NCBI GenBank assembly: GCA_007130885.1
Contig: SLRQ01000050.1
Span: 38,661 to 102,660, forward strand
From: Deltaproteobacteria bacterium
GTDB lineage: Bacteria; Myxococcota; Myxococcia; SLRQ01
DNA: 64,000 nt
Reading direction: 5' to 3'
Part shown: positions 7,601 to 23,170 of the stretch, piece after piece
How positions within the stretch are numbered: the stretch's first letter is position 1
Layout of the letters: each line of letters opens with the position of its first letter
Translations under genes and position numbers: made by a program
Notes under the pieces: generated by a model
Told to the model about the DNA's origin: nothing
The model's database searches: none
What the model saw: the letters and a program-made list of their open reading frames with translations, nothing else

Positions 7601-10600
7601 CGGCTCCAGTGACCAGCGCCGTCCTCCCAGTGAAGTCCAAGGGATGCTTCGTGGCCGAAGCCAGTACTTCCCTGAAGACCGAGTCGAGACGGTCATCGTC
7701 GGGAGAGAGGGCGTCGCCGGAGAGCTCGATCTCGTTTGCGAGAGATTTCAGCGCGTCCGGGCGTGGGTCCGGCCGTTCTTCGTATCTAATCGAGCCGTTT
7801 TCAGCGATCTCGACCCGCGGCCGGGTTGCTTGGACTGGAACGGGCGCCGGCGATAATCGACCGGAGGCGAGCGATTCGAGGGCCTTCGCCAGCTCCTCTC
7901 GACCGTCCAGGCGAGCAAGCGAAGCGTACCAGGATGCCGTGGAGCAAAATCTTTCGGCATCGCGTCCTCTGCTGTGAACGGCAAGTCGCGCCGTCTCCTC
8001 CGCTAGGCGCGAGATGGACAGCCGATCGTTGGAGGCGTCCAAGTAGAGTTTTGCAATATCGCGTTGCGCGAAAGCCCAAGGAGAAGAGAACGCGACGTGT
8101 CGTTTTGACTCGAAGCTGGGCCTCACCATGCGCTCATACTCCGGTCCGTGCTCTGCCTCCCATGTTTCTAGGCGGGTTTCGGGGGACTCTTGCTTGCTTG
8201 TACCGGCTTCGCCGGCCGTAGCGTCCAGCCTGTGACCTAGATGGCCGGCCAGATCGCGAGCCGCGCGCATGAGTGCCCCGTCGGGTCCGGTGAGGCGTTC
8301 CTCGAGTGCTTCGACGGCCGCGGCGTCCACCACCTGCTGTTTCCCATTGCTCGAAGAGCCTCTTTTTCGAAGAGGGAGCCCGTTGCGATCCGCAAGTGTC
8401 TTGCAAACTTCGTCCAGCAGCTCATACGCCGCCGCCTTGCCGGCCGGCCGGAGGCCTGCCAGGGAGCCGAGAGGGCCTCCACGCGCGGATGTCCCCTCCC
8501 GGCTTTCGAGAGCGAGAAGGTCGAGTGCGGAGCTGATGAGTCCCGGGCCTAGGTTCCATTTTTCCGTGAGGTACTTTTGTGCCGCTTTGCGGTTGAGCCC
8601 CGACCGACCAAGAACTCGCCCTATGGCTTCGTCCTGTACTCCTCGGGTGAAGGGGCCGGGACCCATCCATGACCGGGCTCTGTGGGAAATATCCGCCGCA
8701 AGGACGCCAAGAGGACGTTCGGAGGCTCCGTCTATGGTGCCTAGGTTGAACTCGGCACCCAGGTCCACGAGAGCCTGATTGCGGCGCGATGACACGCCAT
8801 CGAATAAGCCGTCGATGGTTTCATCGTCATCGATTTGTTCGAGCCGAAGTCGAGCTTGCGTCGCCATCATGAGCCGGATTGCATCGAGAGGGCTTACCGG
8901 ATGGTCGACCGGCTCGGCGTCAGGCTCGGCACCCGTTTCAATGACGCTTTCGTTCGCTGAACGGGAGGGCTCCGCCACTTCTTCTCTTGTTGCGCCGGGC
9001 TTGCTCGAGGGAGACGGGCAGGCCTCGGTCGTGTCGTCTCCCGGGCCGTCCGAGGTGGGATCGTCGCGGTCGAGGCAGAGTACGCGATCCAGGTCGGCCT
9101 CCGCGTGCAGAATTTCCACTGTGTCGGCTTGGCCGAGATAGCCGAGGGTAGCCCTGGCCATGTTGGTCAAGACGGGTTGATGTTCGACGCCGATTTCGAT
9201 GATTCGCTCTACGCCGAGACCGCCTTCGTCTCGAGAACGAAGGAGCAGCTCTTGAGTCTCAATCCATCGAACCGGGCTTGCGAACTGCCAGGCCAGCAGC
9301 TCCACGAGTATGGTGCGAGCCAGGGCATCGGGCTGCCTGGCTAATTTGTCGTAGTCGTCGAGCACCTCATCCAGGGCCCGAGTTCCCGTCAGCTCGCGTA
9401 TCTCCAGAGCGAAGGAGCGCTCTAGTGAGAACGGAACGGCGAGCAGGTTCGGCACGTAACGGCCTACCAATCGATCGGCGGGAAGCCTGGCGGGAAGAGC
9501 CGCGTCGATGGCATCCCGGAATGCGTCGACTCCGTCGGAGAGCAGCTCCGAGTGGAAGGGCACGTCGATTCCGGGAACCTCGACGTACGGAGGCTTACCG
9601 CCTACCGCAATCTCCTCGAGCGAATGCCGCAGTTTCTCGAGAGCTTCGATTCGTCCGGTGACGGAGTACTGTCGTCCTCGAACATTGTAATTGACGATTT
9701 GCAGAAAGGCGCCGGTGCTATCTCGAATGTCGCCCACGAGCCGCACCGCCATTTCGTGATCGAGGCCGGCATAGTGGGGCCGAATGACCCCCATTCCGTA
9801 GCCGCTCTCCCCGCGGTCGTTTCTAGGAACGAGACCGTGCATTACGAGCCCGCGCTGGTGGACTACCTCGATGAGGGTCTCGAGCGGCAGGATGCCTAGA
9901 AGAGCTCCAAGCGCGTTGTACTCGCCCACACTGTGGCCGCAGGTGACCGCATCCTCCGCCAGAACGCCGCGCTCACGCAGCTCGGCGGCTTGGGCTTGTG
10001 CCAGAACGGCCATGGCTACCTGAGTGAACTGAGTGAGATTCAGTACGCCTTTTGGGTGTACCAGCGAGCGACCGTTCACGACTATCTCGGAAGGGTTATC
10101 GCGGACGATGCGTAGAATGGAGAAACCTAGAGAGCGCCTGGTAAAGGCGTCGGCGCGATCCCAGATCTCGCGGCAGGCCGCGGAGCGGGCATACCCGGCC
10201 ATTCCCATGTCGCTTCGCTGAATGCCCTGACCTGGAAACACATAGGCGGTGCGAGGGGCGGCGATGCGGGCCTCGGAGCGGGCGATCGGCACGAAGTCGT
10301 CGTCGCGGCGGACCTTGGCCGTCAGCGTTACATTGAGATCTCCAGCGGCAGTGCCGGTGCGCACGGCTTCGAGCCGCAAAGGCTCCCCCGGCAGGGCCGG
10401 GGCAAGGAACTCGGTCTCTTGCTTGCGAAGTCGACCTCTATCTCCAGCGGCGATCTCTTCGATCGCGAAGGCGGTAAGACGCGCGGAGGTCCACATGCCG
10501 TGCGCTATGGGCCTTTCCAGGCCCGCGAATCTCGCCATGACCGGACTGTAATGGATGGGGTTCAGATCCTGCCCGGCCTCGGCGAATGCGTGCATGGACG

Positions 10601-13600
10601 ATGGTACGCGAGCGTCGATGGAGGCCAGTGAAAGCGGTGGTGTTTCCTTGGTCTCCTCGCTCGATGAGCCATTCGAAATCTCGGATACGGGAGTGAATCC
10701 AAGAGGCTCGATTGCCGCGAGGATCGGATGGATCCGGGCGCGCGAGCTTGTGTCTAGAGCGATCGTCCCCAGTATCTCCGGCTCCTTGTTATTCGTGCTC
10801 GCTCGCAACAGACGACCGCCGGCCTCGAAGCGGGCTGTCTCGTTTCGCGGGCGAATCTCGCCAAGCAAACACTCCATGGTGAGCCGGTCACCGGCGGAAA
10901 GCTTGATCCCCGGCTTCAGGGAGAGCCAGTCGTGTCCGGAAAAATATTCGGCCGCCGCCTCGTCGGACAACGTGAAAGCCAGCCGTTTCGGCTCGTCGGC
11001 TCGAACGGAGAACCGGGTGTGTCCGAAGGGTTCCCTCACGAAGAACGTCGAAAGGACCAGGGCGGCGAGCTTGCCGTCCTTGTGTATTTCCGACCGCGCC
11101 TGAAGAGTCCGACCATCACTTCGATCCTCTATGCGCGTCAGGCGCGCCTTTACATCGACTTTGTCGCCCACTCGAAGGGGCCATGTTTCGCCGGGTTCGA
11201 ACTCGTGACGAAGATGAACTAGTCGCGAGAGACCGCCGGCGACTTCCTTGTGAGATAGAACGCGGAACAATGGCTCCCAAACAAGAGAGAAGCACAGATC
11301 CGGGGGCGCCTTCGGTGAGTATTGAAGGCCGGTCAAAGCCGCGTAGTCCTTGACGCGTGCCGGCTCCACGAGTTTGCGGTCCCATGCGGTCTCAAATGGC
11401 GTTACCGCGTCTAGGGGACCTCCAAACAGCGAGGCGTGATAGAAATCGCGCAGGCTTTCGGCATGGTCATCCGGATTGGATACGAAAAGGCCCGACCTGG
11501 GGTGCCGGTTCCAGATGAGCACCAGCGGTGGAGGGGAGGCCGCTTGGTCCGGCAGGGTCGCCATTTGAATAGTCAACCGGATGCATTGGTCGCGTCCGCC
11601 CGACTCCGTGCTTGGGAGAAGGTCGACGGTCACTGACTCGAGGCCGTCCGGACAGACATAGCCCAGGGAGCGTCCCGCTTGGTCGACGGACAGCCTCGCG
11701 CCCTTGAGTGTTCTTATCAGCTTGGGTAGGGGGTTTGGTTTCGATAGCCGGCCTTCGCCGAACCTAGGCGCGACGATGAAATCGGCCAAGGGCGCGGCAC
11801 AACGCGCTCTTACGACCCGGATAAATGACTCCGGTGCGGCGCCGGCGGTCGCACGGAATACGACCTCTTTCGGCTCTTCGTCCATTATGAGGCCTTGGGG
11901 AAGAGGGAGGGCCTTGGCCCTTGAACCCGATGCCTTGACGTCTTCGAGAAGAGCGGAATCAAAGCGGCTCAAGAGGTCCGCCACGGGTTCATCGACCTTG
12001 GTTATCCCTCTCACTGCTTCGGGGCCGGGAAGTACGAGAACCTTGTCCGCTTCAAAGCGGGCCTCGTCCTGCAGCCAGAGGGAGTCGGATTTGTACCAGC
12101 GTCTGACGTCTTCATCGATGATGGGCACGAAGTTCACGGGCTTGCCGGGTCTCGCGCATACTTCCCGGATGAACCAGTGTACGTCGGCGGGCCCCGGACG
12201 ACGCATTGCCGCTTCAGGCCAGCGAGCGACGAGGCGGTCCAAGACCGCCTTGGGATCGTCTAGCTCGTCAAGATGGCCCAGCGTACTGGGAACGGTGCGA
12301 CCAGCGGGTGCGAGTCTTGACTCTGCTCTCCAGAGCACGTCCGCGACGCGAGAGCGCCAACCGGCGTCGGGCCAAATGCCGTCCTCATAACGCCCACCCG
12401 AGCCGATCGCCATTAAGGACACCATGCGCTGGAGGACCTCCAGCCAGCTCATTCGGTCTAGGTCGCCGAAGAAGGGCTTTGCGGTTTGGTCGAGGGCTTT
12501 GACTATTTCGTCCCGCCGAGCCGCGATTGCATCGGCGTCGCCTGCTACCTGATCGAGCAGTCGCCCGCATCTTGCGGCCGCGTTGTCGATGTAGTGGATG
12601 TCGGCGGCGAGCTGGCTCTTGCCGGAGGTGATGCCTCCCTCGGACTCGCCGGACAGAACCCAACTTTCACCGCCTGGGGTTTCGACAAGAGCCTGCTTTA
12701 CGGCCGGTGAAGCCTTGGACTCCTTGCAAGCCATTGCGAGCGTGCCAAGAAAAACGGCGTCGACCGGCATGGGATCCAGCTCATACCGGCATGCCCACCT
12801 GCCCGTGAGCAGCTCGACGGCGCGTGCCTCTGTGGCTATTCCGCCGCCGGCGCAGAGGATCACGTTCGGTCTAGAGCGGAGAAGGTCATAGCCGGCAAGC
12901 AGAAGCTCGTCGAGGTCCTCCCACGAGTGGTGCCCTCCGGCTTTTCCTCCTTCCACGTGCACGAAGATCGTGTGCTCCGGAGCCGCTTCAGCTATGCGGC
13001 CCACTTGCTGCACTTGAGCGATCGTTCCGGGCTTGAACGCGTTCAACCAGATGTCATTCGCGCGAAGCTCGTCCAGAAGGGCGCGTGCCTGGTCCGTATC
13101 GGGTATCCCCGCGCTGATGGTTAGTCCGCGAATAGGTGCGCCGGCGGCGCGTGCCTTTTGAACCAACTTCCGCCGGCGAATATGCAGATCCCACAGGTAG
13201 GGGTCCAGATATAGAGCGTTGAATACGATCTCACGGCCGGGGTCCAAGGTTTCGGATAGCTCCTCCATGCGCAGGTTGAACGTTCGCTCGGTTACCTGAC
13301 CTCCACCGGCGAGCTCCGCTACAAAGCCGGCGTTCGCGGCGGCGGCGACGATCTCCACATCGACTGTTGTCGGGGTCATTCCGCCGAGAATGAAGGGAGG
13401 GCAGCCGGTGGCTCTCGTGAAGCTGTTTTCGGCGGTCAAGGCTCCCCGACTGGTCGAAAGCGAGGGGGCGAGTTCTTCATAGCGGATGATGGGCGGTATG
13501 CTTTCGGGAGAGCTTTCCGAGAAGAGACGCTCTCGGCCGGTCGGCTCGGAAAGAGGGATGACCTCGACTCCGCTTCCCTTGAGAATGGAGCGTGTCAAAC

Positions 13601-14852
13601 GGGCCGCGGCGTCGCCCGGGCCCAAATCCAAGATGTGTTGAAGCTCACCATCTCGCCTGAGCTCTCGAATCGCGCGTGTCCACCGTACAGGCTCTATGAA
13701 CTGCATGTTGACTAGGGCACCGGTGAGGTCGGACGAGTCGTTGAGGCGCTCACCGGTGGCGGGGGAGATGCAGTCGATGACGAGGTCGAATGCTTCCACG
13801 GCGAAGCCGATCTCGCGGACGGTTTGGCGCATGGACTGAAGGCCGGATGCCATGGCTGGAGAGTGGTAAGGGCCGCCCACCGGCAGATCCTCCCACGTGA
13901 AGGTTCCGATTTGCCCGGCGAAACGGCCTGCTCGCCGGAGCTTGGTTTCTCGATCGGCCCGAGCCGCGAGCCACTCGTGGAGACGATAAAGAGCCCTGGG
14001 AGGTCCGCTGACGACGAACCGGGTCCTCGTATTATGCAGAGCAATTACTATCGGTGTACCCGGCGATGCACTCTCTCGGCCACCGTCAATCGTCCCAGAA
14101 TCGAGCAGCCTGTTCACCGCTTCGACCCCTTCGGACAGACGCTCGAGCGTGAGGCCCGAGATGGCGGCCATGGGCGCGGTCCCTGATTGTTTCGCGGTTT
14201 CGGGGGCCTTGGCCCAAGACTCAGCCATATGAAGGCCTTGCCAGGCCATGTATCGGACGTAATCCAGAAAGCGTTTCCTCGAGACAATGCCGCGGGGGCT
14301 CTCGGCTATCAGCACAGAGGGCATTACTCCTTGGGAGTGGCCCAAAGAGGCCTTTATCGCGCCCGACTCGAACGCCGCGGAGAGGCCTTCGTTGAAGGCC
14401 GCGATGTATCTTGCCATCTGTGTGATAAAGAGCAGCGGCTGGGATACGAGCGAGGAGGATAGGTAATCCGCTGTGGGGCGAGCGCTCTCATCACGTACCC
14501 ATCGCAGCAAATCGAGGCCTTGGTCCACGAAGCCGCTGGACCGGAACGAGCGCTCGAGGGCCAGGTCGCGAAGAAGCACGTCGGCCGCGTCGACCCATTC
14601 GCGAACGACCGGCGAGTCACGATAGATATCCGAAAGCTCATCGATACAAGAAGCTCCTTGGCCGGCGAATGCGACGGCCGCGGAGGTCTTGCCTCGAGCC
14701 AGTAGGGCCGCCAGCGAAGACTGCAACGGCTTCGGGATGGACTCGTCGGTCTCGGACAAGACCGACTGGTCTACTTTGGTCTCGAATGACCTGCCTCCGT
14801 TTACCATTTCCGCGGCGATGCTCGAACTCTTGTCTCCACGACCGTGACTCAT
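4623..14852 (-). CDS. fas: Type I fatty-acid synthase, bacterial (CMN-type) single polypeptide, 3409 aa: AT-ER(FMN TIM barrel)-DH-MPT-ACP-KR-KS
   Basis: AFAGQG and GHSQG (AT). FILGGMTPTTV...ELAGGGQ...HVEGGKAGGHHSWEDL (fungal/CMN-type FMN enoyl reductase). DLNPIHYSP (hot-dog DH). YVFPGQGIQ and CGHSVGEY (MPT). LVDLGAEFNLG (ACP). TALVTGAGPGSIAFEL (KR). VGACATANVS and GHAKGGAAAW (KS). Confidence 0.9.
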   Translation of the reverse strand: MSHGRGDKSSSIAAEMVNGGRSFETKVDQSVLSETDESIPKPLQSSLAALLARGKTSAAVAFAGQGASCIDELSDIYRDSPVVREWVDAADVLLRDLALERSFRSSGFVDQGLDLLRWVRDESARPTADYLSSSLVSQPLLFITQMARYIAAFNEGLSAAFESGAIKASLGHSQGVMPSVLIAESPRGIVSRKRFLDYVRYMAWQGLHMAESWAKAPETAKQSGTAPMAAISGLTLERLSEGVEAVNRLLDSGTIDGGRESASPGTPIVIALHNTRTRFVVSGPPRALYRLHEWLAARADRETKLRRAGRFAGQIGTFTWEDLPVGGPYHSPAMASGLQSMRQTVREIGFAVEAFDLVIDCISPATGERLNDSSDLTGALVNMQFIEPVRWTRAIRELRRDGELQHILDLGPGDAAARLTRSILKGSGVEVIPLSEPTGRERLFSESSPESIPPIIRYEELAPSLSTSRGALTAENSFTRATGCPPFILGGMTPTTVDVEIVAAAANAGFVAELAGGGQVTERTFNLRMEELSETLDPGREIVFNALYLDPYLWDLHIRRRKLVQKARAAGAPIRGLTISAGIPDTDQARALLDELRANDIWLNAFKPGTIAQVQQVGRIAEAAPEHTIFVHVEGGKAGGHHSWEDLDELLLAGYDLLRSRPNVILCAGGGIATEARAVELLTGRWACRYELDPMPVDAVFLGTLAMACKESKASPAVKQALVETPGGESWVLSGESEGGITSGKSQLAADIHYIDNAAARCGRLLDQVAGDADAIAARRDEIVKALDQTAKPFFGDLDRMSWLEVLQRMVSLMAIGSGGRYEDGIWPDAGWRSRVADVLWRAESRLAPAGRTVPSTLGHLDELDDPKAVLDRLVARWPEAAMRRPGPADVHWFIREVCARPGKPVNFVPIIDEDVRRWYKSDSLWLQDEARFEADKVLVLPGPEAVRGITKVDEPVADLLSRFDSALLEDVKASGSRAKALPLPQGLIMDEEPKEVVFRATAGAAPESFIRVVRARCAAPLADFIVAPRFGEGRLSKPNPLPKLIRTLKGARLSVDQAGRSLGYVCPDGLESVTVDLLPSTESGGRDQCIRLTIQMATLPDQAASPPPLVLIWNRHPRSGLFVSNPDDHAESLRDFYHASLFGGPLDAVTPFETAWDRKLVEPARVKDYAALTGLQYSPKAPPDLCFSLVWEPLFRVLSHKEVAGGLSRLVHLRHEFEPGETWPLRVGDKVDVKARLTRIEDRSDGRTLQARSEIHKDGKLAALVLSTFFVREPFGHTRFSVRADEPKRLAFTLSDEAAAEYFSGHDWLSLKPGIKLSAGDRLTMECLLGEIRPRNETARFEAGGRLLRASTNNKEPEILGTIALDTSSRARIHPILAAIEPLGFTPVSEISNGSSSEETKETPPLSLASIDARVPSSMHAFAEAGQDLNPIHYSPVMARFAGLERPIAHGMWTSARLTAFAIEEIAAGDRGRLRKQETEFLAPALPGEPLRLEAVRTGTAAGDLNVTLTAKVRRDDDFVPIARSEARIAAPRTAYVFPGQGIQRSDMGMAGYARSAACREIWDRADAFTRRSLGFSILRIVRDNPSEIVVNGRSLVHPKGVLNLTQFTQVAMAVLAQAQAAELRERGVLAEDAVTCGHSVGEYNALGALLGILPLETLIEVVHQRGLVMHGLVPRNDRGESGYGMGVIRPHYAGLDHEMAVRLVGDIRDSTGAFLQIVNYNVRGRQYSVTGRIEALEKLRHSLEEIAVGGKPPYVEVPGIDVPFHSELLSDGVDAFRDAIDAALPARLPADRLVGRYVPNLLAVPFSLERSFALEIRELTGTRALDEVLDDYDKLARQPDALARTILVELLAWQFASPVRWIETQELLLRSRDEGGLGVERIIEIGVEHQPVLTNMARATLGYLGQADTVEILHAEADLDRVLCLDRDDPTSDGPGDDTTEACPSPSSKPGATREEVAEPSRSANESVIETGAEPDAEPVDHPVSPLDAIRLMMATQARLRLEQIDDDETIDGLFDGVSSRRNQALVDLGAEFNLGTIDGASERPLGVLAADISHRARSWMGPGPFTRGVQDEAIGRVLGRSGLNRKAAQKYLTEKWNLGPGLISSALDLLALESREGTSARGGPLGSLAGLRPAGKAAAYELLDEVCKTLADRNGLPLRKRGSSSNGKQQVVDAAAVEALEERLTGPDGALMRAARDLAGHLGHRLDATAGEAGTSKQESPETRLETWEAEHGPEYERMVRPSFESKRHVAFSSPWAFAQRDIAKLYLDASNDRLSISRLAEETARLAVHSRGRDAERFCSTASWYASLARLDGREELAKALESLASGRLSPAPVPVQATRPRVEIAENGSIRYEERPDPRPDALKSLANEIELSGDALSPDDDRLDSVFREVLASATKHPLDFTGRTALVTGAGPGSIAFELVRHLLRGGARVLLTTSTYNKDRLLSYRRLFQHEASPEAELHVVPFNQASVGDIDALADWVFGEITEQAGATVRTTKRPFAPDILVPFGALKQIGTLDGLSPHTEAAMRAMLLGVERLVGAVASRFARIGIPRSPCHVLLPLSPNHGDFGGDGTYAESKAGLETLLSRWHSEQEAWGNATTICGARIGWVRGTGLMDANDPVAAALEEETGARTFSSAEMGLVLAGLCTDDLRAAASKTPLRADLTGGIGRIANLRATVDRIRSRIDAATTKKRRLAALSSKEAELLDSVNVPRSTVTGSDAWPEAVNPPSLRPWPTSVETPLSETVVIVGAGEVGPFGSARPRFEIETEDSLSSAGVLELAWMTGLVRWEPGPPSGWIDVETEEAVQETEIKARYESTVRKQSGIRFIEPETAGYDPERAPVLAKVWLERDFSFPVTSEQEARSFLQNDPENTRAHYDPQSDRWTVTRLAGTEVRVPREVDFDRSVAGIVPRGFDPARYGVPAEMVETLDRATIFNLISTADAFLSAGLTPEELYTWIHPSRVGNTQGSGIGGMQSLHRLYLDHILGQERQGDILQETLVNVVAAYAVQAFSGSYGPMIHPVGACATANVSIEEAMDKIRVGKADFVIAGGFDDIGKEGALGFADMGATASSSEMQAMGMEPEQMSRANDIRRRGFIEAQGGGTLLLARGDVAARMGLPVLGVLAYSASFGDGIHKSIPAPGMGALACATGGRHSPLGEALARFGLTTDDIAFVSKHDTSTNANDPNESDLHHRIQESLERTPGNPLWVVSQKSLTGHAKGGAAAWQIIGLCQSLAAGIIPGNRNLENVDPAMRSHSHLAFSDDSLRPGPALPLRAGLLTTLGFGHVSGVALVLHPDCFAGLMSPKERESWLRRSSNRREEAERHRAKVWMGEEAAFTKRTHRRFVAPDGSAAQADEEASMLLDPNARFDPARGVFSRAASNTEPSSSTPSGDEVEAKTEAGA

Positions 14853-15287
14853 GCGATCCCTTTCTAGCGTTTGCCGGCGTTCCTTGTAGCGCGTAAATGC
14901 AGGCGTAGGCCCGGTTGCCTCAAAGAAAACCGACCGGTCAGTCTAGTAGGGGATCACAGTAGCCGGGCGGATCGGTGCTGTCAACAAGGTCGCTGCCTGA
15001 GCCATCCCCTCTATCGTCCGAGTCGCTTGGCGGAGCAATCCCGAGGTATTTCGATCGCTTGGGGAGCAATCTGAAGGCGAGGAAGAGTCGGAGTGCAAAG
15101 TAGGCCGTTTGAATCAGGCATCGGGTGAGTTTGCACCTTTTTTCGAGCGCGCGAGGGAGCGCGGACTCATGGCTTCCCCGCTTCGTCATGCTCGTTCCGT
15201 TTTTCGAGAGCCCGCGGGAGCGCGGGCGTGGCGAGCGCGGAGAGCGGCAGCCGCGGCAGCGATGGGCCCGGCTGTTGTCCTGCTATA
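14853..15287 (-). promoter_or_regulatory. TetR-to-fas intergenic region (435 bp) with two pairs of direct repeats; candidate fas promoter/operator region
   Basis: CGCTTGGcGGAGCAATCc at 15014-15031 and CGCTTGGgGAGCAATCt at 15046-15062. TTTTTCGAGcGCgCGaGGGAGCGCGG at 15138-15164 and TTTTTCGAGaGCcCGcGGGAGCGCGGG at 15200-15226 (62-bp period). The second pair contains the CCCGCGGGAGCGCGGG palindrome. Confidence 0.3.
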
Positions 15288-16448
15288 TCAGGCCTTCTCG
15301 GCCAGCTTCGAAGCCTGTCGCACCAGAGCGGCGAAGGCGGGGACAGGTACCGGTTTGGTGTGAGGAAGATCGAAGTAGCGAGTGCGGAGCCCCTTGCCTC
15401 GAAGCTTGGCCTCGGGGTCCGAGATGGCGATGCCGTTCTCGAAGGTTACGCGCGTGGCATCTTGACGTGGCTCTATTCGGCAAATGACCGTGCCGCCCCT
15501 GATGTAGCCGAGCGCCTTCTTTCCCCTGGTCAGGCGCTCGCTGGCGTCCGGTGCCGACTCGAGAACCAGGCGCCGTAGCGTGAAAACTTGCTCATGGGCG
15601 ATTTGCGGCATCAAAGCCAAGAGAGCCTTGATCTCTTCCTCTTCGACCCGTGCTCCTTCGATGGCGCTATCAGCCTTTTGGTGTCGGGTTAGAGCGGCGG
15701 TTTCGCCTGCATGCACCCGGCGAAACAGGCGGCCGAGCACACCCACGATCTGTGCCCCGGCTGATGAGCCGTCCTCGGTGCCTTCAGCTTCCGAGTGCGG
15801 CTTGATTCCGATTTGACCTGCGGAGGTGTTCACTCTTTGGAGCAGGCGTCCGAGTACGCCCATGACCTGCCCGAACGCCTGCGGGGGCCGGGAGCTGTCG
15901 AACTCCGAGAGCTCCCATGTCAACAAGCCGGTGTAGGCCCCAAAAATGGCTGATGCGACACCTTGCAGCTCGTCTTCGTTGAGCTCGTCTTTGAGGGCTG
16001 GGCGCAGCATTTCGGCTATGGCGGTTCGAGAGCGGCGATGGAAGCGGGAGAGAGCCTCGCGGATCTTGGGGTCGCGCCGGGCGTGCACCGCGAACTCGAG
16101 CCAAAGAGGAACTATGACCCTGCCGCGGCGGCTTTCCCGCTGAAAGGCACGAGTAATGGCTCCCACGTAGTCAGGCTGATCGAGTGCCTCCTGAAACTGC
16201 TCGTACAGCTCGTCCATCACCTCTCGAGTCCAGGTCTCCAGGATGTCTATGAACACCTCTTGCTTGGACTCGTAGTGCCAGTAGAGGCTGCCCTTGGATA
16301 TGCCTGCTTTCTCGCAAATCGCATCCACGCTGGTCTCGTGGTAGCCGCGATCACGAAAGCACCGATAAGCGGCGCTGCGAATCTCCTGCCGCTTCCGGGT
16401 CCCTTTTGTCGAAGTCTTACGTCTCACCCTGGCTCTCTCATCCGCCAT
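15288..16448 (-). CDS. TetR-family transcriptional regulator, 386 aa, with an unusual long C-terminal extension (possible FasR-like fatty-acid synthesis regulator)
   Basis: N-terminal TetR HTH (RQEIRSAAYRCFRDRGYHETSVDAICEKAGISKGSLYWHY). Lies directly upstream of fas on the same strand. Internal repeat GVLGRLLQRV / GVLGRLFRRV. About 150 extra C-terminal residues. Confidence 0.8.
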   Translation of the reverse strand: MADERARVRRKTSTKGTRKRQEIRSAAYRCFRDRGYHETSVDAICEKAGISKGSLYWHYESKQEVFIDILETWTREVMDELYEQFQEALDQPDYVGAITRAFQRESRRGRVIVPLWLEFAVHARRDPKIREALSRFHRRSRTAIAEMLRPALKDELNEDELQGVASAIFGAYTGLLTWELSEFDSSRPPQAFGQVMGVLGRLLQRVNTSAGQIGIKPHSEAEGTEDGSSAGAQIVGVLGRLFRRVHAGETAALTRHQKADSAIEGARVEEEEIKALLALMPQIAHEQVFTLRRLVLESAPDASERLTRGKKALGYIRGGTVICRIEPRQDATRVTFENGIAISDPEAKLRGKGLRTRYFDLPHTKPVPVPAFAALVRQASKLAEKA

Positions 16449-16514
16449 CGTAGGAGATAATGACCTCGCTGGTGGTCCCGGCGCAAGCCGTCAGAACATT
16501 CACGCTAGGCGTGG

Positions 16515-17399
16515 CTAGCGCCGTTCCACCCATCGCAGCGAGAAGACCTCCTCTTCGAGATCGACTCCGAACTCTATGTTTGCAAACTCGAGCCGGGTCA
16601 CCGAGTCTTCTATCACGTGGTCTTCGATGGTCATTCGGGTGGGAAACCTTCGTTCCTCCTCGAACTCCTCGATTTCGCTCATGGTCCAGGTCTTGAGGAG
16701 CATGTCGTCGAGGGCGTACAGTTCCTGCTTCAAGGGGATGAATGTTCCCTTATCGACCCAGATGACTCGCCGGGGGTATGTGACGGCCCGGTCCTTGGCC
16801 GTCATCTCCAGTTTCCAGGTGGGCTGCCCGTCCAGGTCCTCCTCGCCCACCAGCTCGGCGTCATACATCTCTCTCATCTCGGGTGACTCCATCAGATCTT
16901 CGTACGAAACGTCGGAGCCCATCATCCCTTCCCGAAGCATGTGACCCGAGATCTTTTGGACTCTGTCTATCGCAGGCATGTACATCCACAGCTCGTCGCC
17001 GAGCTTGAGCATTCGCGTGCCTCGCTCGCGCGGCGGGGATAGATACTCTATCGCGGCGTCTTCCAAGCCGCGGGCATACGTTTGCATCTCGAAAGTGCGC
17101 GTTCTTCTGCCCTCCACCACCATGGTTACGCGGGCGGTTCTGGTCTCGAAGGTCAGATTCTCGTCCACCTTATCCAGAATCTCGTCAGCAGACGTTGCAC
17201 CCGCGGACTCCCTTGTCGCGCTCGTCTCTTCCTCGTCACCTTCCTCCGCGGAAGTGGATTGATCGCCAGCCTCGCCTGCTTTCGGCTCCTCCCGGGGTGA
17301 GGATTCATCGGCGCTCCCCTTTGGGAGATCCGCCGCCAAAACGAATGGCGAGAATGCAAGCGACAACAGAACGGCAAGAGTCAGTCTTTTCATGGTCAT
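16515..17399 (-). CDS. LolA-like outer-membrane lipoprotein-sorting family protein with signal peptide and acidic low-complexity linker
   Basis: Start MTMKRLTLAVLLSLAFSPFVLA (ATG at 17399, ATGA overlap with the upstream permease stop). The track ORF is extended upstream by an open frame. Acidic stretch, then a LolA-like beta-rich domain (TFEMQTYARG...KLEMTAKD...). Confidence 0.7.
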   Translation of the reverse strand: MTMKRLTLAVLLSLAFSPFVLAADLPKGSADESSPREEPKAGEAGDQSTSAEEGDEEETSATRESAGATSADEILDKVDENLTFETRTARVTMVVEGRRTRTFEMQTYARGLEDAAIEYLSPPRERGTRMLKLGDELWMYMPAIDRVQKISGHMLREGMMGSDVSYEDLMESPEMREMYDAELVGEEDLDGQPTWKLEMTAKDRAVTYPRRVIWVDKGTFIPLKQELYALDDMLLKTWTMSEIEEFEEERRFPTRMTIEDHVIEDSVTRLEFANIEFGVDLEEEVFSLRWVERR

Positions 17400-18631
17400 C
17401 TCCTGGTGCGCATAGCGACCACGGGCTGCACGTAGGCTGCCCGGATGGACGGGATTACACTTCCGATGAACGCCGCGAGCAAACCGAGCAGGAAGGAACC
17501 GAGCACGACGCCGGCCGTCAGCTCGCCGTATACGGTTGCCGTGACCGGAAGATCGGCTGCCAAGGTCGTCGCGACGTCTCCAATCTCTACGCCTCGCGCA
17601 TGAAGCAGCCAAGCAGGGCCTATGCCGAGCACGATGCCCGCCAAACCGCCGAGGCCGGCGATGATGATCGCTTCTACGATGAAGATCCAGACGACACCCA
17701 AGCGTCCGAGACCCATTGCGCGAAGAACGCCGATTTCGCTGGTGCGTTCGAGTACCGACATCATCATGGTGTTCAGGATGCCCAAGGCCGCCAGAAGCAC
17801 TATTGCGAACACCAGGATCCCTTGTACCTGTTCCATGAACCCCGCCAGCCCGCCGTACGGCTCTCGTTCGATCCAGGCTTCCACCGCCATCCCCTCGAGT
17901 TCGGGAAGCTCGCGTAGCGAGCGCGCCAGAGCCGGGGCGTCTTGATATCTTTCTCCGAACACCAAGATCTCGATAGTCCCTTCGGGTATGTCGGTGATCC
18001 ATCGAAGCTCCTCCAGCGGGAGAAAGACCTGCTGGTCGAAGAAGCTCGAACCGGCGTGCAGGATGCCGACCAGCGTTCCCATGGCGGGGGACATCGAGCC
18101 ATCCTGTGTCATCCCGAGCAGAACAACCTCGTCGCCGAGCTGGGCGTCTACCTGCCTGACTACCCGGTGTCCCATGACGAGCTCGTCCTCGTTCTCGAAC
18201 CAGCGGCCCTCGATCAACTCGTCCATCGCCTGAAGGCGGTCTCTATAGTAGCTCTCGGGGGCTCCGACCGCGCCGGCAAAGACATCCCCTATCTCCTCGC
18301 CCACCGTAACCGTGACCCCCGTCATTATTCTAGGCATTGCCGCGACCACGTCGGGGTGCTTCGAGAGCAGCTCGACCAAAGGGTCGGACGGTTCTATGTT
18401 TTCGTAAAGTGGGGCTAGCTGCTCTTGGGCCGAGTACTCCTGCGTCACTATGCGAACATGGCCGGCAATGGAGGCCGACTCCTCCATCATTCCACCGAAG
18501 ATACCCGTTACCCAGGTCAGGCCCATGACGAGCAACGCTACTCCCAATGCGACCATTGCAGCCGTGAGCAGGCTGCGGGTTCGATGCCGCCACGTGCCTC
18601 GAGCCGCCAGACGAAAAAGATGGGTCCGCAT
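17396..18631 (-). CDS. ABC transporter permease, FtsX/MacB/LolE-like (4 TM plus large periplasmic domain)
   Basis: The track ORF 17396..18796 overlaps the upstream gene. The likely real start is MRTHLFRLAARGTW at 18631 (TAATG junction). C-terminal FtsX TM bundle. Confidence 0.8.
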   Translation of the reverse strand: MRTHLFRLAARGTWRHRTRSLLTAAMVALGVALLVMGLTWVTGIFGGMMEESASIAGHVRIVTQEYSAQEQLAPLYENIEPSDPLVELLSKHPDVVAAMPRIMTGVTVTVGEEIGDVFAGAVGAPESYYRDRLQAMDELIEGRWFENEDELVMGHRVVRQVDAQLGDEVVLLGMTQDGSMSPAMGTLVGILHAGSSFFDQQVFLPLEELRWITDIPEGTIEILVFGERYQDAPALARSLRELPELEGMAVEAWIEREPYGGLAGFMEQVQGILVFAIVLLAALGILNTMMMSVLERTSEIGVLRAMGLGRLGVVWIFIVEAIIIAGLGGLAGIVLGIGPAWLLHARGVEIGDVATTLAADLPVTATVYGELTAGVVLGSFLLGLLAAFIGSVIPSIRAAYVQPVVAMRTRR

Positions 18632-19848
18632 TACTCCGCCCTCACTGCCTCCGCCGGCGGCATTGAGGCAGCCACACGAGCGGGAAATATGGAAGCCAGC
18701 ATGGAAACGACTATTCCGAAGCCGACGCCGAAGAGAACTGTTCCCATGCTGAAGCGGGTATATACGAGGGCCGAGAACGCCAGGTCTTCTCCCCATACGT
18801 CAATTAGATCGCCGAAATCTATTGGATTTACAGCCCAGTGTGCGGCAAGCCCTCCTCCCCACAAGGCTCCGAGAATACTGCCTACGATTCCGATTATCAG
18901 CCCTTCGAACACGAAAAGGCCCGTGACGCCTTGCTTCGTCATTCCCATCGAGCGAAGCGTGCCCACCTCCCTCACGCGCTCATAGGCCGACATTAGTATG
19001 GTGTTTGCCATACCAACGCCGGCCAGAGCGAGCAGTATCGCGGAGATGATCTGGAGAGCGCGCCTGCGAATATTTTGGATCCCCATGAGATCCTGGACGT
19101 CCTCCTGCCACGTCTGAACTTCAGCGCGGTCACCGAGAAGCTCGGAGATGCGAGCGGCGAAGGGCTCGGAGTCGTCGCGGGATTCCAGCCGCGTGCCGAT
19201 ATGCGTCGGGTTGTCGGCGTCTATTAGTCTTTGAGCCAAAGAGAGAGACATGAGAATTCCCATCGAGTCGATGTTATGAAAACCCGTCTCCACGATTCCA
19301 GAGACGCTGACTCGGAGTGCGTTCATCGCTCCCAGGTGGGTTCTTACCCGCAAAATAAGGGTGTCACCGACTGATAGGTTCAGGAGATCGGCAACGCCGG
19401 TGGTCAGCAGCACCTCGTTTTGCTCCGCATCGGGTTTCTCCGCGGTGACTTGCCACAGAGCACGTGAGAATACCTCCGGATCCCGAACCGGATCGTACCC
19501 GATGGCGCGCGCGCGGACATGATCCGGGCCCGCGGCGGCTGTTGGAGAAAAGATGATCCTTTCTGTCCAAGCCACTGTTTCTTCGTCCAGCACGCGGCGG
19601 ACCTCTTCGTCTATTTCGAGCAGTTCGTCCACAGGGTGCTGTATTCCCTCCGGATAGTCGGGAGGGCGAATCAGCACGTGACTGTTCATGCTCTCGATGG
19701 ATGAGACCTTCAGGTTTTCGGTTACCCCGCTGACGAGGCCCTCTCCCAGTATGAACACGCCGATCCCTACCACGATGGCTACCATAGACAGTATTACTCG
19801 TCGCGGGCAGCGAAACAGGTTTCTTCGAGCCAGCCTTGGAATGATCAT
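18631..19848 (-). CDS. ABC transporter permease, FtsX/MacB/LolC-like
   Basis: 405 aa, MIIPRLARRNLFRCPRRVILSMVAIVVGIG... is a typical FtsX N-terminal TM. The start overlaps the ATPase stop (ATGA). Confidence 0.8.
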   Translation of the reverse strand: MIIPRLARRNLFRCPRRVILSMVAIVVGIGVFILGEGLVSGVTENLKVSSIESMNSHVLIRPPDYPEGIQHPVDELLEIDEEVRRVLDEETVAWTERIIFSPTAAAGPDHVRARAIGYDPVRDPEVFSRALWQVTAEKPDAEQNEVLLTTGVADLLNLSVGDTLILRVRTHLGAMNALRVSVSGIVETGFHNIDSMGILMSLSLAQRLIDADNPTHIGTRLESRDDSEPFAARISELLGDRAEVQTWQEDVQDLMGIQNIRRRALQIISAILLALAGVGMANTILMSAYERVREVGTLRSMGMTKQGVTGLFVFEGLIIGIVGSILGALWGGGLAAHWAVNPIDFGDLIDVWGEDLAFSALVYTRFSMGTVLFGVGFGIVVSMLASIFPARVAASMPPAEAVRAE

Positions 19849-20547
19849 CCCGCGCCTCCGCTCGAGTCGCGGCGCTCGTCGCTGCTGACCACACCGTCCG
19901 TGAGGCTGACGATGCGGCGGCCTCGCTCAATCATTCTGGGATCGTGGCTGGAGAACAGAAATGTGATTCCGTGGGTCTCGTTGAGAGCTTGCATGATGTC
20001 GAGCACCTGCGCGCCGTTTGTCGTGTCGAGGTTCGCGGTGGGCTCGTCCGCTATGATCAGTGCCGGGTGCTTGACAAGCGCCCTAGCAATCGCCACGCGC
20101 TGTTGCTGACCTCCCGAGAGCTGGTTGGGCCGGCGGCGCTCGAACCCCTCGAGCCCCACTTCCGAGAGGAGCTTGGCCGCGGGCTCACGTGTATCTTCCT
20201 TCAGGCCGGCGAGCTGTAGGGCCAGCTCGACGTTCTCCAGAGCCGTTAGAACAGGCATGAGATTGAAAGACTGAAAGACGAAGCCGATAGTGCTAGCCCG
20301 GAGGCGAGAGAGTGCGCGCGACGAAAGATCCTTTACCGACCGATCTTTCACGATTACGTCGCCCTCGGTAGGCGTATCAAGGCATCCGACCATGTTGAGC
20401 AATGTGGTCTTACCGGAGCCTGACGGACCCTTGAAGACGGTGAACTCTCCGCTGTCTATGGAAAGAGAGATATCTTTTACGGCGTCTACTCTTGCGGGAC
20501 CGGTGCCATAGGACTTGGTAACGTGTTTCAGCTCACAGACAGCCATG
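19845..20547 (-). CDS. ABC transporter ATP-binding protein (LolD/MacB-type)
   Basis: Walker A GPSGSGKTTLLN, signature LSGGQQQRVAIARAL, Walker B IIADEPT. Start taken at MAVCELKHV, which has a GAGGAAA RBS, rather than at the TTG-extended track start. Confidence 0.85.
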
Positions 20548-20590
20548 ATTTCCTCGTCTTCCGTGGTCAAGCATGAAATGAGAAAGTGAT

Positions 20591-21973
20591 TTAGATACTG
20601 AAGCGAGCCCAGAACGTAATCGTGGAGGAAGGGACCAGTCCGGAAAGGTCCACCTCGATGGGGTCTAGATTCGGCTCGAGATCGAATTCGAACCTCGTGT
20701 CTTGCGGGCGAGGACGGAACTCACCACCATCGCCCCAGGTCGAGAAGGGGATTTGCGCGGACAGTGACAGGTCGAGTCTGCCGGTGGCTATGAAAGTCAA
20801 GGTGGGTATTGCGAAGGCCGTCCCATCGTTCAGGTTCTGAAGCATGAACGTGTCCAGCAACCAGTCCGGCGAAAATGTGAATGAAGTCCCAAGAAGCAGA
20901 TAGTCGCGGGCAAGCGACACGGGTGCAAAGGGAGACTCCTCAAACGGTTCAGCCAGCTCGTCGGGCTGGTTGATTTCGCAGTCGGGAAGGCCAACTCCCG
21001 CTAGGGCGGTGGGTCTGGCGTATTCGTCGGGGCGAGTAGCTCCGGCGCCGTTACGATAGTACTGTGCCAGGACGACCGTCCGATCAAACAGCGGAAACGA
21101 GTAGTCGATGCCGACGGCCAGCTCCGTGTGAGGTTCGCTTCCGGGAAAAAGCGCGGCCTCCGCCCACCAGCCCACGACGGTGGTGCCTCGCAGATCGAGC
21201 CCCACGAGGGTGTCGTCCTCATCTCCGCGCCATGCGCCGACCGCCGCCAGGTTGACCCCTGCGAAGTTCAGGCGCGCTCGCCCCGCGATCCGCGGCTGTA
21301 GCAGGGCATCGTCGATGGCCGCCACCGCCATGACGTCGTTCAATGGACCGAAGGGGACTGTCAAGCGGGCGGCGTTGATCCCTCTTCGAGGTCGCCATGG
21401 CTCGGCCAAGAGCAGCTCCGGAAAGGGATCGGTTGGATTGAAGAACCGCGCTGAGCCCCAGTGCAAGGACTGTCTTCCGATCCGAAGGTCGAAATCGTCC
21501 TGGTAGACGTCGATAAAGAGCCGGTCGACTTCGAGGTAGTCGGAGGCGTCATGGATTCTGAAAAGGTCGTGGCCTCTGTCGGGCCAGGTGCACCCCGCCG
21601 CTTCCAGCAACGGGCCGAGGTCGCTCTCCTCGACTGTTCGGCGTAGCTCGGCGGTTGGATCGCGGCCCTGCATCAGGCCCGCTTCCACCGTGACGGCGAG
21701 CGCGACCCGGTCGACTATACGCATGTTCAAGGTGGGGCGAAAACGTTGAACAGCCTGCCAGCTCTCGCCGGTGGTTCCAGTGAAGGCGGAGACTCTCGCC
21801 TCGGCGAACCCGTGGCCTTCTTCCCTCGCGAGAGCCTGCTGGGAAACGGCCGAAGCAAATAGAAGGAAAGCGGTCGATGCGAGCAAGGTTCTTTGGGCAT
21901 TCGGCCGAGTCCGGTCGGCTGGACCTTGGAGACTTGCGTTTGTTGCTTCGCGGCTGGTTGGGGTCACGGTCAT
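20591..21973 (-). CDS. Putative secreted outer-membrane beta-barrel protein (family unrecognised), first gene of the exporter cluster
   Basis: 460 aa. Signal-like LLASTAFLLFASAVSQQALA. Alternating amphipathic beta-strand pattern through the C-terminus (TFIATGRLDLSLSAQIPF...ITFWARFSI). Confidence 0.45.
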   Translation of the reverse strand: MTVTPTSREATNASLQGPADRTRPNAQRTLLASTAFLLFASAVSQQALAREEGHGFAEARVSAFTGTTGESWQAVQRFRPTLNMRIVDRVALAVTVEAGLMQGRDPTAELRRTVEESDLGPLLEAAGCTWPDRGHDLFRIHDASDYLEVDRLFIDVYQDDFDLRIGRQSLHWGSARFFNPTDPFPELLLAEPWRPRRGINAARLTVPFGPLNDVMAVAAIDDALLQPRIAGRARLNFAGVNLAAVGAWRGDEDDTLVGLDLRGTTVVGWWAEAALFPGSEPHTELAVGIDYSFPLFDRTVVLAQYYRNGAGATRPDEYARPTALAGVGLPDCEINQPDELAEPFEESPFAPVSLARDYLLLGTSFTFSPDWLLDTFMLQNLNDGTAFAIPTLTFIATGRLDLSLSAQIPFSTWGDGGEFRPRPQDTRFEFDLEPNLDPIEVDLSGLVPSSTITFWARFSI

Positions 21974-22204
21974 GTTTCTTTGGCCTCATTCGCTAATGGA
22001 GCCGGCGCAGACGCGACAATCTCGAAGAAAATGGACGTTAGCATCCCAAATCGTCTTTGCCATCCTTAATTGGATCTGCCCGGACCCTGTAATGAGGCCT
22101 GTCGTTGACGCGTGCGGAGTGAGGCCTCATACTCGCGGCGTTCCAGGGTTTTGTCGTCTGCTGGACCCTACCGGGCCCATCAACGCAAGTGAAAGGAAGC
22201 CTGC

Positions 22205-23170
22205 GTGATTTTTCCCATAGCCGGTGTCGAGCTGTGCCCGCTGTTGCCCGTGCTCCTTGGCCTGGCGATTGGCACTCTGGCTGGGGTGTTCGGAATCGGC
22301 GGTGGGGTTCTTGCTACACCTGCGTTGATGTGGGCGGGGGTGCCGCCGGCCGCCGCGGTTGGAACGGGCCTCAACCAGATGATCGCGGCCTCGGCGATTG
22401 GAACAATGTTGAACGTCGAGGCGGGGCGGGTGCGGCCCTCACTTGCTCTGTTTGCGGCTTGTGCGTCGCTGCCCGCAGGTTTTCTGGGCACGCTGGCCGC
22501 CGGATTGTTGATAGAGGGTGGATATTTCGGTGTTGTAGTCGCATCCGCCTACGTGCTGATTCTCGTGGCGGTCGGTTTTCGGATGTTGCGCGAGCTCTGG
22601 ACGGCGGGGTCCAGTCACCCGGCCGGCGATGCCCTCTCCGACGCCGGCGGTGTCGCGGTCGTTGTTCTGTTCAGCCTGCTCGCCGGGCTGTTCGCCGGTT
22701 TATTGGGTGTTGGAGGAGGTTTCATACTCGTTCCGGTCATGATCTACTTGGTGGGAATTGGCACCCGCGTGGCGATCGGTACGAGCCTGATGCAGATCTT
22801 GCTCATCTCCTGTGGAGCAACGGTGTTCCACGCCACTTTCATTGGAGGCGTGGACGTCATGCTCGCGGCCATGCTGATGGTGGGCTCGATTCCCGGCTCC
22901 TGGCTTGGGGTTGCACTGGCTCGACGCCTGCCGGTCGCGCGATTGCGTGGCCTGTTCGGTTTGCTGCTTCTGCTGGCCGCGGCGAGAATGGGCTGGGAGA
23001 TCTTCGGCGCCGCGCCCGCGGCGCAGCCGCTTCCGGCACAGGCTGGCGCGATTGGCAGCGCTATCGAGCTGTTTGCCGGCGAAAAGCCTTTACTTTATGG
23101 CCTCTCAGCAGCCGCGTTCGCGCTGGTCGCGGGAGGTTTAGCGGGGTTCGTGGTCACTCGAGCCCGTTAA
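22205..23170 (+). CDS. TauE/SafE (DUF81) family anion exporter membrane protein
   Basis: GTG start. Repeated GxGGG membrane motifs (GVFGIGGGVLATPALM; GLLGVGGGFILVPVMIYL), 8 predicted TM. Confidence 0.8.
   Translation: MIFPIAGVELCPLLPVLLGLAIGTLAGVFGIGGGVLATPALMWAGVPPAAAVGTGLNQMIAASAIGTMLNVEAGRVRPSLALFAACASLPAGFLGTLAAGLLIEGGYFGVVVASAYVLILVAVGFRMLRELWTAGSSHPAGDALSDAGGVAVVVLFSLLAGLFAGLLGVGGGFILVPVMIYLVGIGTRVAIGTSLMQILLISCGATVFHATFIGGVDVMLAAMLMVGSIPGSWLGVALARRLPVARLRGLFGLLLLLAAARMGWEIFGAAPAAQPLPAQAGAIGSAIELFAGEKPLLYGLSAAAFALVAGGLAGFVVTRAR

Follow-up and report, generated by a model that had tools for sequence, protein, structure and literature searches.

Does a set of envelope-transport genes that abuts the genes of a fatty acid synthase export what this synthase makes, or are the two merely neighbours? 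The question is raised by a 64 000-nt stretch of DNA (the whole of it is called the window here) from a Deltaproteobacteria bacterium of the Myxococcota (GenBank assembly GCA_007130885.1, contig SLRQ01000050.1, positions 38 661 to 102 660 of the forward strand). Five minus-strand genes at 16515-21973 of the window encode an outer-membrane beta-barrel, an ABC ATPase, two FtsX permeases and a LolA-like carrier, and they are followed by genes for a TetR regulator, a type I fatty acid synthase (FAS-I), a phosphopantetheinyl transferase (AcpS) and an acetyl-CoA carboxylase (ACC). An initial annotation, made from the letters of the DNA, had proposed that what FAS-I makes, or a lipid formed from this product, is exported to the outer envelope by this five-gene cassette. 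Our comparisons point elsewhere: the cassette is probably a self-contained, widely conserved and often TetR-associated LolCDE-like system that moves a hydrophobic substrate to or through the outer membrane, and its adjacency to the FAS genes is specific to one lineage.

Conservation of the cassette

A profile of the barrel, run against GTDB genomes, gave 59 loci (one per species), and contig look-ups added closer relatives. The complete colinear cassette, in the order barrel-ABC-FtsX-FtsX-LolA_like, is found in 45 of 63 relatives; among the 18 incomplete loci, 15 are truncated where the contig ends, and the same five-gene order is seen in 45 out of 48 informative relatives. The complete loci span 5.0-5.7 kb (with one outlier of 8.9 kb), and the homologues are overwhelmingly from Myxococcota metagenome-assembled genomes (MAGs). 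Some MAGs titled Enterobacteriaceae, Klebsiella pneumoniae or Rickettsiales (e.g. those of loci L016, L027, L041 and L062) also carry the cassette; the encoded proteins are 40-48% identical to the Myxococcota ones, and these MAGs are probably mislabelled bins.

None of the 45 complete cassettes in other genomes has FAS-I nearby (33 of the 45 have at least 5.5 kb of downstream DNA). Seen from the other side, TetR-DUF1801 homologues are encoded directly upstream of FAS-I (3300-3400 a.a.) in 19 other metagenomic loci (among loci L069-L071 and L076-L095), and no exporter match was found in these 19 loci, where the DNA upstream extends for 10 kb in six cases and for 2.0-4.3 kb in seven others. The closest relatives of the window's cassette (barrel homologues with 64% and 60% identity, and a carrier homologue with 78%) have unrelated flanks, and in MAG AMX-MBFR-64 the exporter is on contig 1 and TetR-FAS on contig 36. 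The exporter-TetR-fas arrangement is thus not conserved, the co-location being peculiar to this one genome.

An all-vs-all comparison of flanking open reading frames (ORFs) gave a sole recurrent neighbour of the cassette: a small TetR (∼220 a.a.), encoded directly upstream and on the same strand in 23 loci. For example, a cultured Corallococcus carries the cassette with its own TetR, and FAS was not seen nearby. Neither a conserved catabolic gene nor a conserved cargo lipoprotein gene was found beside the cassette in this survey of the 63 loci. In a distant metagenomic lineage (L113:9917-16052, and also L099, L103 and L116) the gene order is permuted to TetR-LolA_like-FtsX-FtsX-ABC-barrel, with the same six components; the full set is found in all four loci that are long enough, and the barrels of the permuted and colinear cassettes are homologous (hhalign probability 97.3%, E = 1.9e-11). 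Because the set of components is kept despite the permutation of gene order, there is strong evidence that the six proteins (TetR, carrier, two FtsX permeases, ABC ATPase and barrel) act together. The TetR of the permuted cassette is ∼30% identical to the FAS-associated TetR over the DNA-binding and TetR_C_6 domains, and the SKGSFYWH / SKQEVFIDI motifs are common to both. One permuted-cassette permease has a marginal match to LptF_LptG.

The neighbouring FAS-I module

The FAS-I of the window has the mycobacterial/fungal architecture, its best PDB matches being mycobacterial FAS-I proteins (2130-2160 bits). The full TetR-DUF1801/FAS-I/AcpS/fused BC-BCCP-CT ACC module is present in this Myxococcota-like MAG (1-16448 of the window, minus strand), and in the literature searched we found no paper describing FAS-I in Myxococcota.

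All 19 TetR-FAS loci have a palindrome, AGAC-N6-GTCT (extended consensus AGACYnnCCRGTCT), in their regulatory DNA, where its density is 2.4 per kb as compared with 0.2 per kb downstream (12-fold enriched). A position weight matrix was built from 20 sites and the whole window was scored with it: the top two matches (19.3 and 17.0 bits) lie on either side of the FAS start codon, the one at 14759 lying ∼80 nt inside the FAS coding region, and weaker operator-like sites were found at 14739 and 14606. A promoter-like element (TTGACA-N17-TACTGT) is just upstream of the site at 14931. Judged by its conservation, the palindrome is a candidate operator of the FAS-associated TetR. In the region 5' of the cassette the matrix finds only a background match (5.4 bits at 22009, 25th in the window). 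Since the palindrome is conserved at FAS and is matched at background level 5' of the cassette, the TetR is part of the FAS module, and exporter and FAS genes form independent modules that abut here; TetR-DUF1801 is a conserved partner of FAS-I, not of the exporter.

Control of the exporter by the FAS-associated TetR was considered and rejected: the AGAT-N6-GTCT sequence (one mismatch) 36-49 nt upstream of the barrel gene is this very background match. The TetR domain of the window has its closest homologue (77-79% identity, without DUF1801) at L072:172-2840, ahead of a gene for an acyl-CoA dehydrogenase, not FAS, a context that fits a TetR clade devoted to fatty-acid metabolism.

With no cassette near FAS-I among the 45, no exporter match in the 19 TetR-FAS loci and no credible operator upstream of the cassette, the proposed export of a FAS-I product is not supported. 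The initial annotation had itself named a lack of co-location in related genomes, together with separate transcription, as grounds for refutation, and the first of these is what the surveys gave. The adjacency is a lineage-specific juxtaposition of two independently conserved modules; it is not evidence for FAS-product export, and no ground for annotating the cassette as a fatty-acid or lipid exporter. The initial annotation had further held that LolA-like carriers beside FtsX pumps recur in clusters that export lipids or polyenes, a statement that we could not substantiate (a full-text literature search found no such paper). Aryl-polyene and flexirubin clusters have other LolA families together with RND/MMPL-type exporters.

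Locus layout

Every ORF of the cassette was found where it had been placed, and the description of five co-directional, closely packed genes holds: three junctions overlap and a single gap, of 44 nt, lies between the barrel and ABC genes. As read directly from the sequence, the ABC/FtsX1 junction is ATGA (a 4-nt overlap), the FtsX1/FtsX2 junction is TAATG (a 1-nt overlap) and the FtsX2/LolA_like junction is again an ATGA overlap. The position directly 5' of TetR-fas-acpS-acc on the same strand was also given correctly, with the neighbours as named: the gap between LolA_like and TetR is 66 bp and that between TetR and FAS-I a further 435 bp, so that FAS-I starts 1.7 kb downstream of the cassette. 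A scan of 14700-22400 for sigma-70 promoters and intrinsic terminators gave site numbers no higher than in shuffled sequence, and no site in the 66-bp gap. The gene call and Pfam assignment of the ACC were made on the source contig (a 148-kb metagenome contig). Coordinates are collected in Table 1.

Table 1. Cassette genes and neighbouring features, with positions in the 64 000-nt window
Feature	Position	Strand	Remarks
Outer-membrane 18-stranded beta-barrel	20591-21973	-	460 a.a.; signal peptide; AlphaFold2 model
ABC ATPase	19845-20546	-	233 a.a. from ATG at 20546; PF00005
FtsX permease 1	18631-19848	-	405 a.a.; Pfam FtsX and MacB_PCD
FtsX permease 2	17396-18631	-	411 a.a.; Pfam FtsX and MacB_PCD
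LolA_like carrier	16515-17399	-	294 a.a. (292 a.a. from ATG at 17393); PF17131
Intergenic region 5' of cassette	21974-22204		Presumed cassette promoter region, shared with divergent TauE-family gene
TauE-family gene	22205-23170	+	Divergent from cassette
TetR + DUF1801 (neighbour, separate module)	15288-16448	-	386 a.a.; Pfam TetR_N, TetR_C_6 and DUF1801
FAS-I (neighbour)	4623-14852	-	3409 a.a., single chain; Pfam domains, PDB match
AcpS phosphopantetheinyl transferase (neighbour)	4216-4626	-	136 a.a.; PF01648; 4-nt overlap with FAS stop
Fused acetyl-CoA carboxylase (neighbour), 5' part	1-4219	-	1890 a.a., BC-BCCP-CT; gene exceeds left window edge
AGAC-N6-GTCT operator-like palindromes (neighbour)	14759-14772 and 14931-14944		Flank FAS start codon; position weight matrix

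The ABC ATPase and the permeases

The ATPase matches PF00005 (E = 7.8e-34), and its sequence, when read, shows an intact Walker A, signature, Walker B and H-loop. Its ATG follows a GAGGAA that resembles a Shine-Dalgarno sequence; an alternative TTG at 20570 would give a protein of 241 a.a. The best NCBIfam models are DevA (TIGR02982; 218 bits, cutoff 295.8) and LolD (TIGR02211; 210 bits, cutoff 308), with 199 bits against MacB (NF007826; cutoff 966). The protein is of the group that resembles LolD, DevA and the nucleotide-binding domain of MacB.

Permease 1 has four transmembrane segments and a periplasmic MacB_PCD domain, and permease 2 is its paralogue (26% identity; pairwise BLASTP E = 1e-28). 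They score 106 and 101 bits, respectively, against the lolCE model (TIGR02212; cutoff 362). The best PDB match of permease 1 is LolE (E = 2.6e-12), permease 2 matches MacB, LolF and LolE (E ∼1e-11 to 1e-12), and the PDB relatives of the two proteins overall are LolE, LolC, LolF and MacB. By these scores the permeases and the ATPase are LolCDE-like in layout, fall far below all Lol, MacB and DevA equivalog cutoffs, and are non-orthologous to those proteins.

No HlyD-type membrane-fusion adaptor is encoded among the five cassette genes or as a recurrent neighbour across the 63 loci, and a TolC-family outer-membrane duct was not found either (by Pfam, structural comparison of the barrel and the neighbour survey of the 63 loci). 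We rejected a MacAB-TolC reading, since adaptor and TolC are missing and the ATPase is separate from the permeases. Pfam domains and folds agree with the initial annotation in that this is an ABC system of the LolCDE/MacB superfamily with a LolA-superfamily protein and a barrel; the epithet 'tripartite-looking' given to it is loose for a system that has neither an HlyD membrane-fusion protein nor a TolC-type duct.

The LolA-like carrier

The carrier is a member of PF17131 (LolA_like/TP_0789-like), which it matches with 191.3 bits (cutoff 30) over positions 3-184 of the 184 in the hidden Markov model. Against the canonical LolA family it has no Pfam match at E <= 0.01 and no NCBIfam match whatever; its match to DUF1329 (PF07044) is weak (E = 0.0059; 16.4 bits, cutoff 23.1). 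Sequence matches in the PDB are 3BUU (NE2245), 3BK5, 4Z48 (deposited as a DUF1329 family protein) and 9TP6 (Porphyromonas gingivalis LolA3). The AlphaFold2 model of the carrier (predicted local distance difference test score, pLDDT, 79) gave Foldseek template modelling (TM) scores of 0.59-0.66 to these same four structures, and of only ∼0.4 to true LolA structures. The carrier is therefore not the canonical LolA of the lipoprotein-sorting pathway, a possibility that the initial annotation had named as fatal to its own proposal; it groups with NE2245 and P. gingivalis LolA3 by both sequence and fold.

Among 29 aligned sequences (the carrier and 28 homologues) no N-terminus has a lipobox motif; type I (SPI) signal peptides are found instead, and the carrier is for this reason taken to be a soluble periplasmic protein. 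A Met/His-rich loop, SGHMLRxGMMGSDVSYEDL (residues 151-168; 16896-16949 of the window), is invariant in all 29 sequences. The model gives this loop low confidence (pLDDT ∼51-56), and NE2245 does not share it; it might serve as a lid, in docking to a partner, or in binding a ligand or metal. The window's carrier also has an acidic low-complexity linker of ∼45 residues (25-70; 17190-17327 of the window) that separates the fold from the signal peptide. Such a linker is missing from most homologues, which are 240-260 a.a. long, a similar stretch being found only in the closest relatives (299 a.a.).

Published data on related proteins agree, by analogy, with a carrier role outside the canonical Lol route: P. 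gingivalis LolA3 interacts very weakly with LolB and has neither the LolA Arg nor the LolB Leu (PMC13103446), and deletion of lolA3 in F. johnsoniae gave no gliding or type IX secretion phenotype (PMC11885536).

The outer-membrane barrel

Searches of the window's barrel against Pfam and NCBIfam gave no match. Its AlphaFold2 model has 18 strands (pLDDT 85.7, predicted TM score 0.80), and the barrel and its homologues have signal peptides and C-terminal aromatic/hydrophobic beta-signals. An invariant motif, GRQ..WGS..FFNPTDPFPE...EPWRPRRG (residues 166-198), lies within the long loop that joins strands 5 and 6; standard barrel topology would make this loop extracellular and able to fold into the lumen.

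The best structural matches of the barrel include the uptake porins OccD/OprD, with AlgE and Wzi nearly as good. Sub-threshold matches to DUF1302 (PF06980) were obtained for 28 out of 34 members of the barrel family (best E = 9.4e-5); the window's own match is weak (E = 0.11; cutoff 23.2 bits) and falls on the stretch entering the GRQ..WG..NP motif. Alginate_exp was matched by seven and Wzi by five of the 34 members. The barrel is thus porin/AlgE-like and weakly related to DUF1302. The barrel family is sizeable: when 1.84 billion representatives were searched with its profile, 2713 relatives had E <= 1e-3 and 103 had E <= 1e-30, yet no Pfam model matched the family above threshold. Two of its representatives, P0321 (861 a.a.) and P0374 (802 a.a.), have an extra ∼340-440 residues at the N-terminus, possibly by fusion or as an artefact of gene calling.

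Proposed mechanism

From the domain families, folds, signal peptides, absence of adaptor and TolC, and TetR association, we infer the following transport steps. Two different FtsX permeases and an ABC ATPase dimer would assemble into a LolCDE-like type VII ABC machine of the inner membrane; the underlying layout (two permeases and a separate ATPase, with their domain content) is read directly from the genes. Powered by ATP hydrolysis, the periplasmic domains would pull a hydrophobic or amphipathic molecule out of either the periplasm or the inner membrane (its outer leaflet), and the molecule would then be passed to the soluble LolA-superfamily carrier. The carrier may shuttle or bridge it to the dedicated 18-stranded barrel, whose channel, narrowed by the invariant loop that joins strands 5 and 6, would let it pass into the outer membrane or beyond. 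In many lineages the TetR at the head of the cassette probably gives ligand-inducible expression, and its presence there makes bulk lipoprotein sorting less likely than transport of a small lipophilic substrate, which could be an endogenous lipid or metabolite or else a toxic hydrophobic compound. Dedicated TetR regulators are typical of small-molecule-responsive pumps.

Other sets that combine a barrel, a LolA-superfamily protein and an inner-membrane transporter have been implicated with hydrophobic compounds or envelope components: AmeABCD (PMC6394551) and the DUF1302/DUF1329/BNR/RND cofitness group (bioRxiv 10.1101/072470). Sets of this kind are needed for growth on monoterpenes (PMC6394551) and are important for growth on fatty esters (bioRxiv 10.1101/2020.07.04.188060).

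Alternative explanations

The cassette might be a specialised paralogue of the lipoprotein-sorting pathway, in which a second LolCDE-like extractor and a LolA-like chaperone work with the barrel as an insertase or surface-exposure pore replacing LolB. The two permeases with a separate ATPase match LolCDE, the permeases are best matched in the PDB and NCBIfam by LolE, LolC and LolF, the carrier has the LolA/LolB fold, and the cassette encodes no LolB-type lipoprotein, all of which would fit. We nevertheless consider this unlikely, because all Lol equivalog scores are far under their cutoffs, the carrier does not match the LolA family, P. gingivalis LolA3 binds LolB very weakly and is without the diagnostic residues (PMC13103446), the F. 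johnsoniae lolA3 deletion has no lipoprotein-dependent phenotype (PMC11885536), a dedicated TetR at the cassette head is common, and no cargo lipoprotein gene is conserved beside the cassette. Transport could also run inwards, as uptake or scavenging of hydrophobic nutrients that enter by an OprD/DUF1302-like channel, are bound by the LolA-like protein and are delivered to the inner membrane. The substrate-specific uptake porins among the barrel's best structural matches would suit such a role, as would the occurrence of DUF1302/DUF1329 genes in catabolic clusters and their importance for growth on monoterpenes, Tween and fatty esters (PMC6394551; bioRxiv 10.1101/2020.07.04.188060; bioRxiv 10.1101/072470). 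Uptake is very improbable, however, since type VII ABC proteins (MacB/LolCDE/FtsEX) are mechanotransmitters, the export-related AlgE and Wzi come close to the porins as matches of the barrel, and no catabolic genes are conserved beside the cassette. Type VII ABC proteins are not known to have a transmembrane import path.

We give the least credence to a functional coupling with TetR-fas-acpS-acc, in which the cassette would be devoted to bringing the FAS-I product, or some lipid made from it, to the outer envelope. The two modules are adjacent and co-directional with no terminator-like site in the short gap, the window's cassette has no TetR of its own, permuted-cassette TetRs resemble the FAS-associated one, and there is a 12.4-bit operator-like site at 18025 inside the FtsX2 gene (∼0.17 such sites would be expected by chance in the cassette); these observations would agree with such a coupling. 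But cassettes and FAS-I do not meet at any of the 45 and 19 loci surveyed from the two sides, the closest barrel and carrier relatives have unrelated flanks, the modules are on separate contigs in AMX-MBFR-64, the Corallococcus cassette has its own TetR and no FAS nearby, and the region 5' of the cassette has no credible FAS-type operator. The preferred reading, a self-contained cassette for a hydrophobic substrate, has several points against it as well: the window's cassette and its closest relatives have no upstream TetR, co-transcription with the downstream TetR is possible across a 66-bp gap in which no terminator-like site was seen, the invariant residues of the barrel are mostly charged (R, D and E), unlike a greasy slide, and uptake porins (OccD/OprD) are among the barrel's best structural matches.

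Implications

The cassette is a conserved yet uncharacterised envelope transport system, of moderate interest for envelope biogenesis, and we found no paper on an ABC(FtsX)-PF17131-barrel system. A more tentative idea, which we regard as possible though rather doubtful, is that it is a third kind of ABC-driven trans-envelope route beside Lol and Lpt, leading from a LolCDE-like extractor to a PF17131 chaperone and on to its own DUF1302-related barrel, for an endogenous lipid, a lipophilic metabolite or a special lipoprotein; barrel and chaperone would then be an ancient module driven by either ABC or RND motors. A narrower version of this idea, that the present MAG has recruited the cassette for a FAS-I-derived lipid, is less likely. 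If the mechanism is true, Myxococcota and several other Gram-negative lineages would have a dedicated route across the periplasm for hydrophobic cargo whose end-point is a barrel, not LolB, and DUF1302/DUF1329 and LolA3-type proteins would join one functional class in which ABC and RND motors are interchangeable. Because a cultured Corallococcus carries the cassette with its own TetR, the question is experimentally accessible.

Comparison with known systems

The inner-membrane and periplasmic parts of the cassette are most like those of the E. coli LolCDE-LolA-LolB pathway: both have two different FtsX permeases with four transmembrane segments and MacB-type periplasmic domains plus a separate ATPase (in 45 loci for the cassette), both have a soluble periplasmic carrier of the LolA/LolB half-barrel fold, and neither has a membrane-fusion protein. 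The cassette differs in that its permeases (101-106 bits, cutoff 362) and ATPase (210 bits, cutoff 308) fall outside the Lol equivalogs, its carrier is in PF17131 and not in the LolA family, an 18-stranded barrel takes the place of the lipoprotein LolB as outer-membrane acceptor, and a TetR is often found at its head. MacAB-TolC shares the FtsX/MacB_PCD permease fold and a MacB-like nucleotide-binding domain, and moves substrates out of the periplasm; in the cassette, by contrast, the ATPase is unfused, the permeases form a heterodimer and not a homodimer, and there is neither an HlyD adaptor nor a TolC duct. The DevBCA glycolipid exporter is likewise distinct, as the cassette's ATPase scores under the DevA cutoff (218 vs 295.8 bits) and no membrane-fusion gene is present. 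With LptB2FG-LptA-LptDE the analogy is functional only: an inner-membrane ABC extractor, a periplasmic carrier (beta-jellyroll or half-barrel) and a dedicated barrel are found in both, and the protein families are unrelated apart from the marginal LptF_LptG match in one permuted-cassette permease.

The outer-membrane half finds its closest parallel in the DUF1302/DUF1329/BNR/RND (HAE3) systems (e.g. AmeABCD of Castellaniella defragrans and Sama_1588-1591), which also combine a barrel, a LolA-superfamily protein and an inner-membrane transporter, and which have been implicated with hydrophobic compounds or envelope components (PMC6394551; bioRxiv 10.1101/072470). The motor of the cassette, however, is a type VII ABC transporter and not RND (HAE3/COG1033), a BNR/Ycf48-like protein is absent from the cassette and its recurrent neighbours, the barrel (∼430-460 a.a., without Pfam membership) is shorter than DUF1302 (∼600 a.a.), and the carrier belongs to PF17131 rather than PF07044. 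The P. gingivalis cluster PG1175-PG1181 (with LolA3, PDB 9TP6) can be likened to the cassette by its description: it is TetR-headed and includes a PF17131 protein, ABC ATPases and a 'porin' or hypothetical outer-membrane protein, and low iron strongly induces this TetR/ABC/MMPL/LolA3/'porin' cluster, by 13- to 136-fold (PMC10434189; PMC13096392). It differs in using an MMPL/RND transporter, in having no FtsX permeases, and in belonging to Bacteroidota, not Myxococcota. By analogy, the cassette is best read as an ABC-driven variant of the DUF1302/DUF1329-type systems: by the tests applied it appears to be a member neither of these nor of the Lol pathway, being Lol-like in the inner membrane and periplasm and DUF1302/DUF1329-like in its outer-membrane half.

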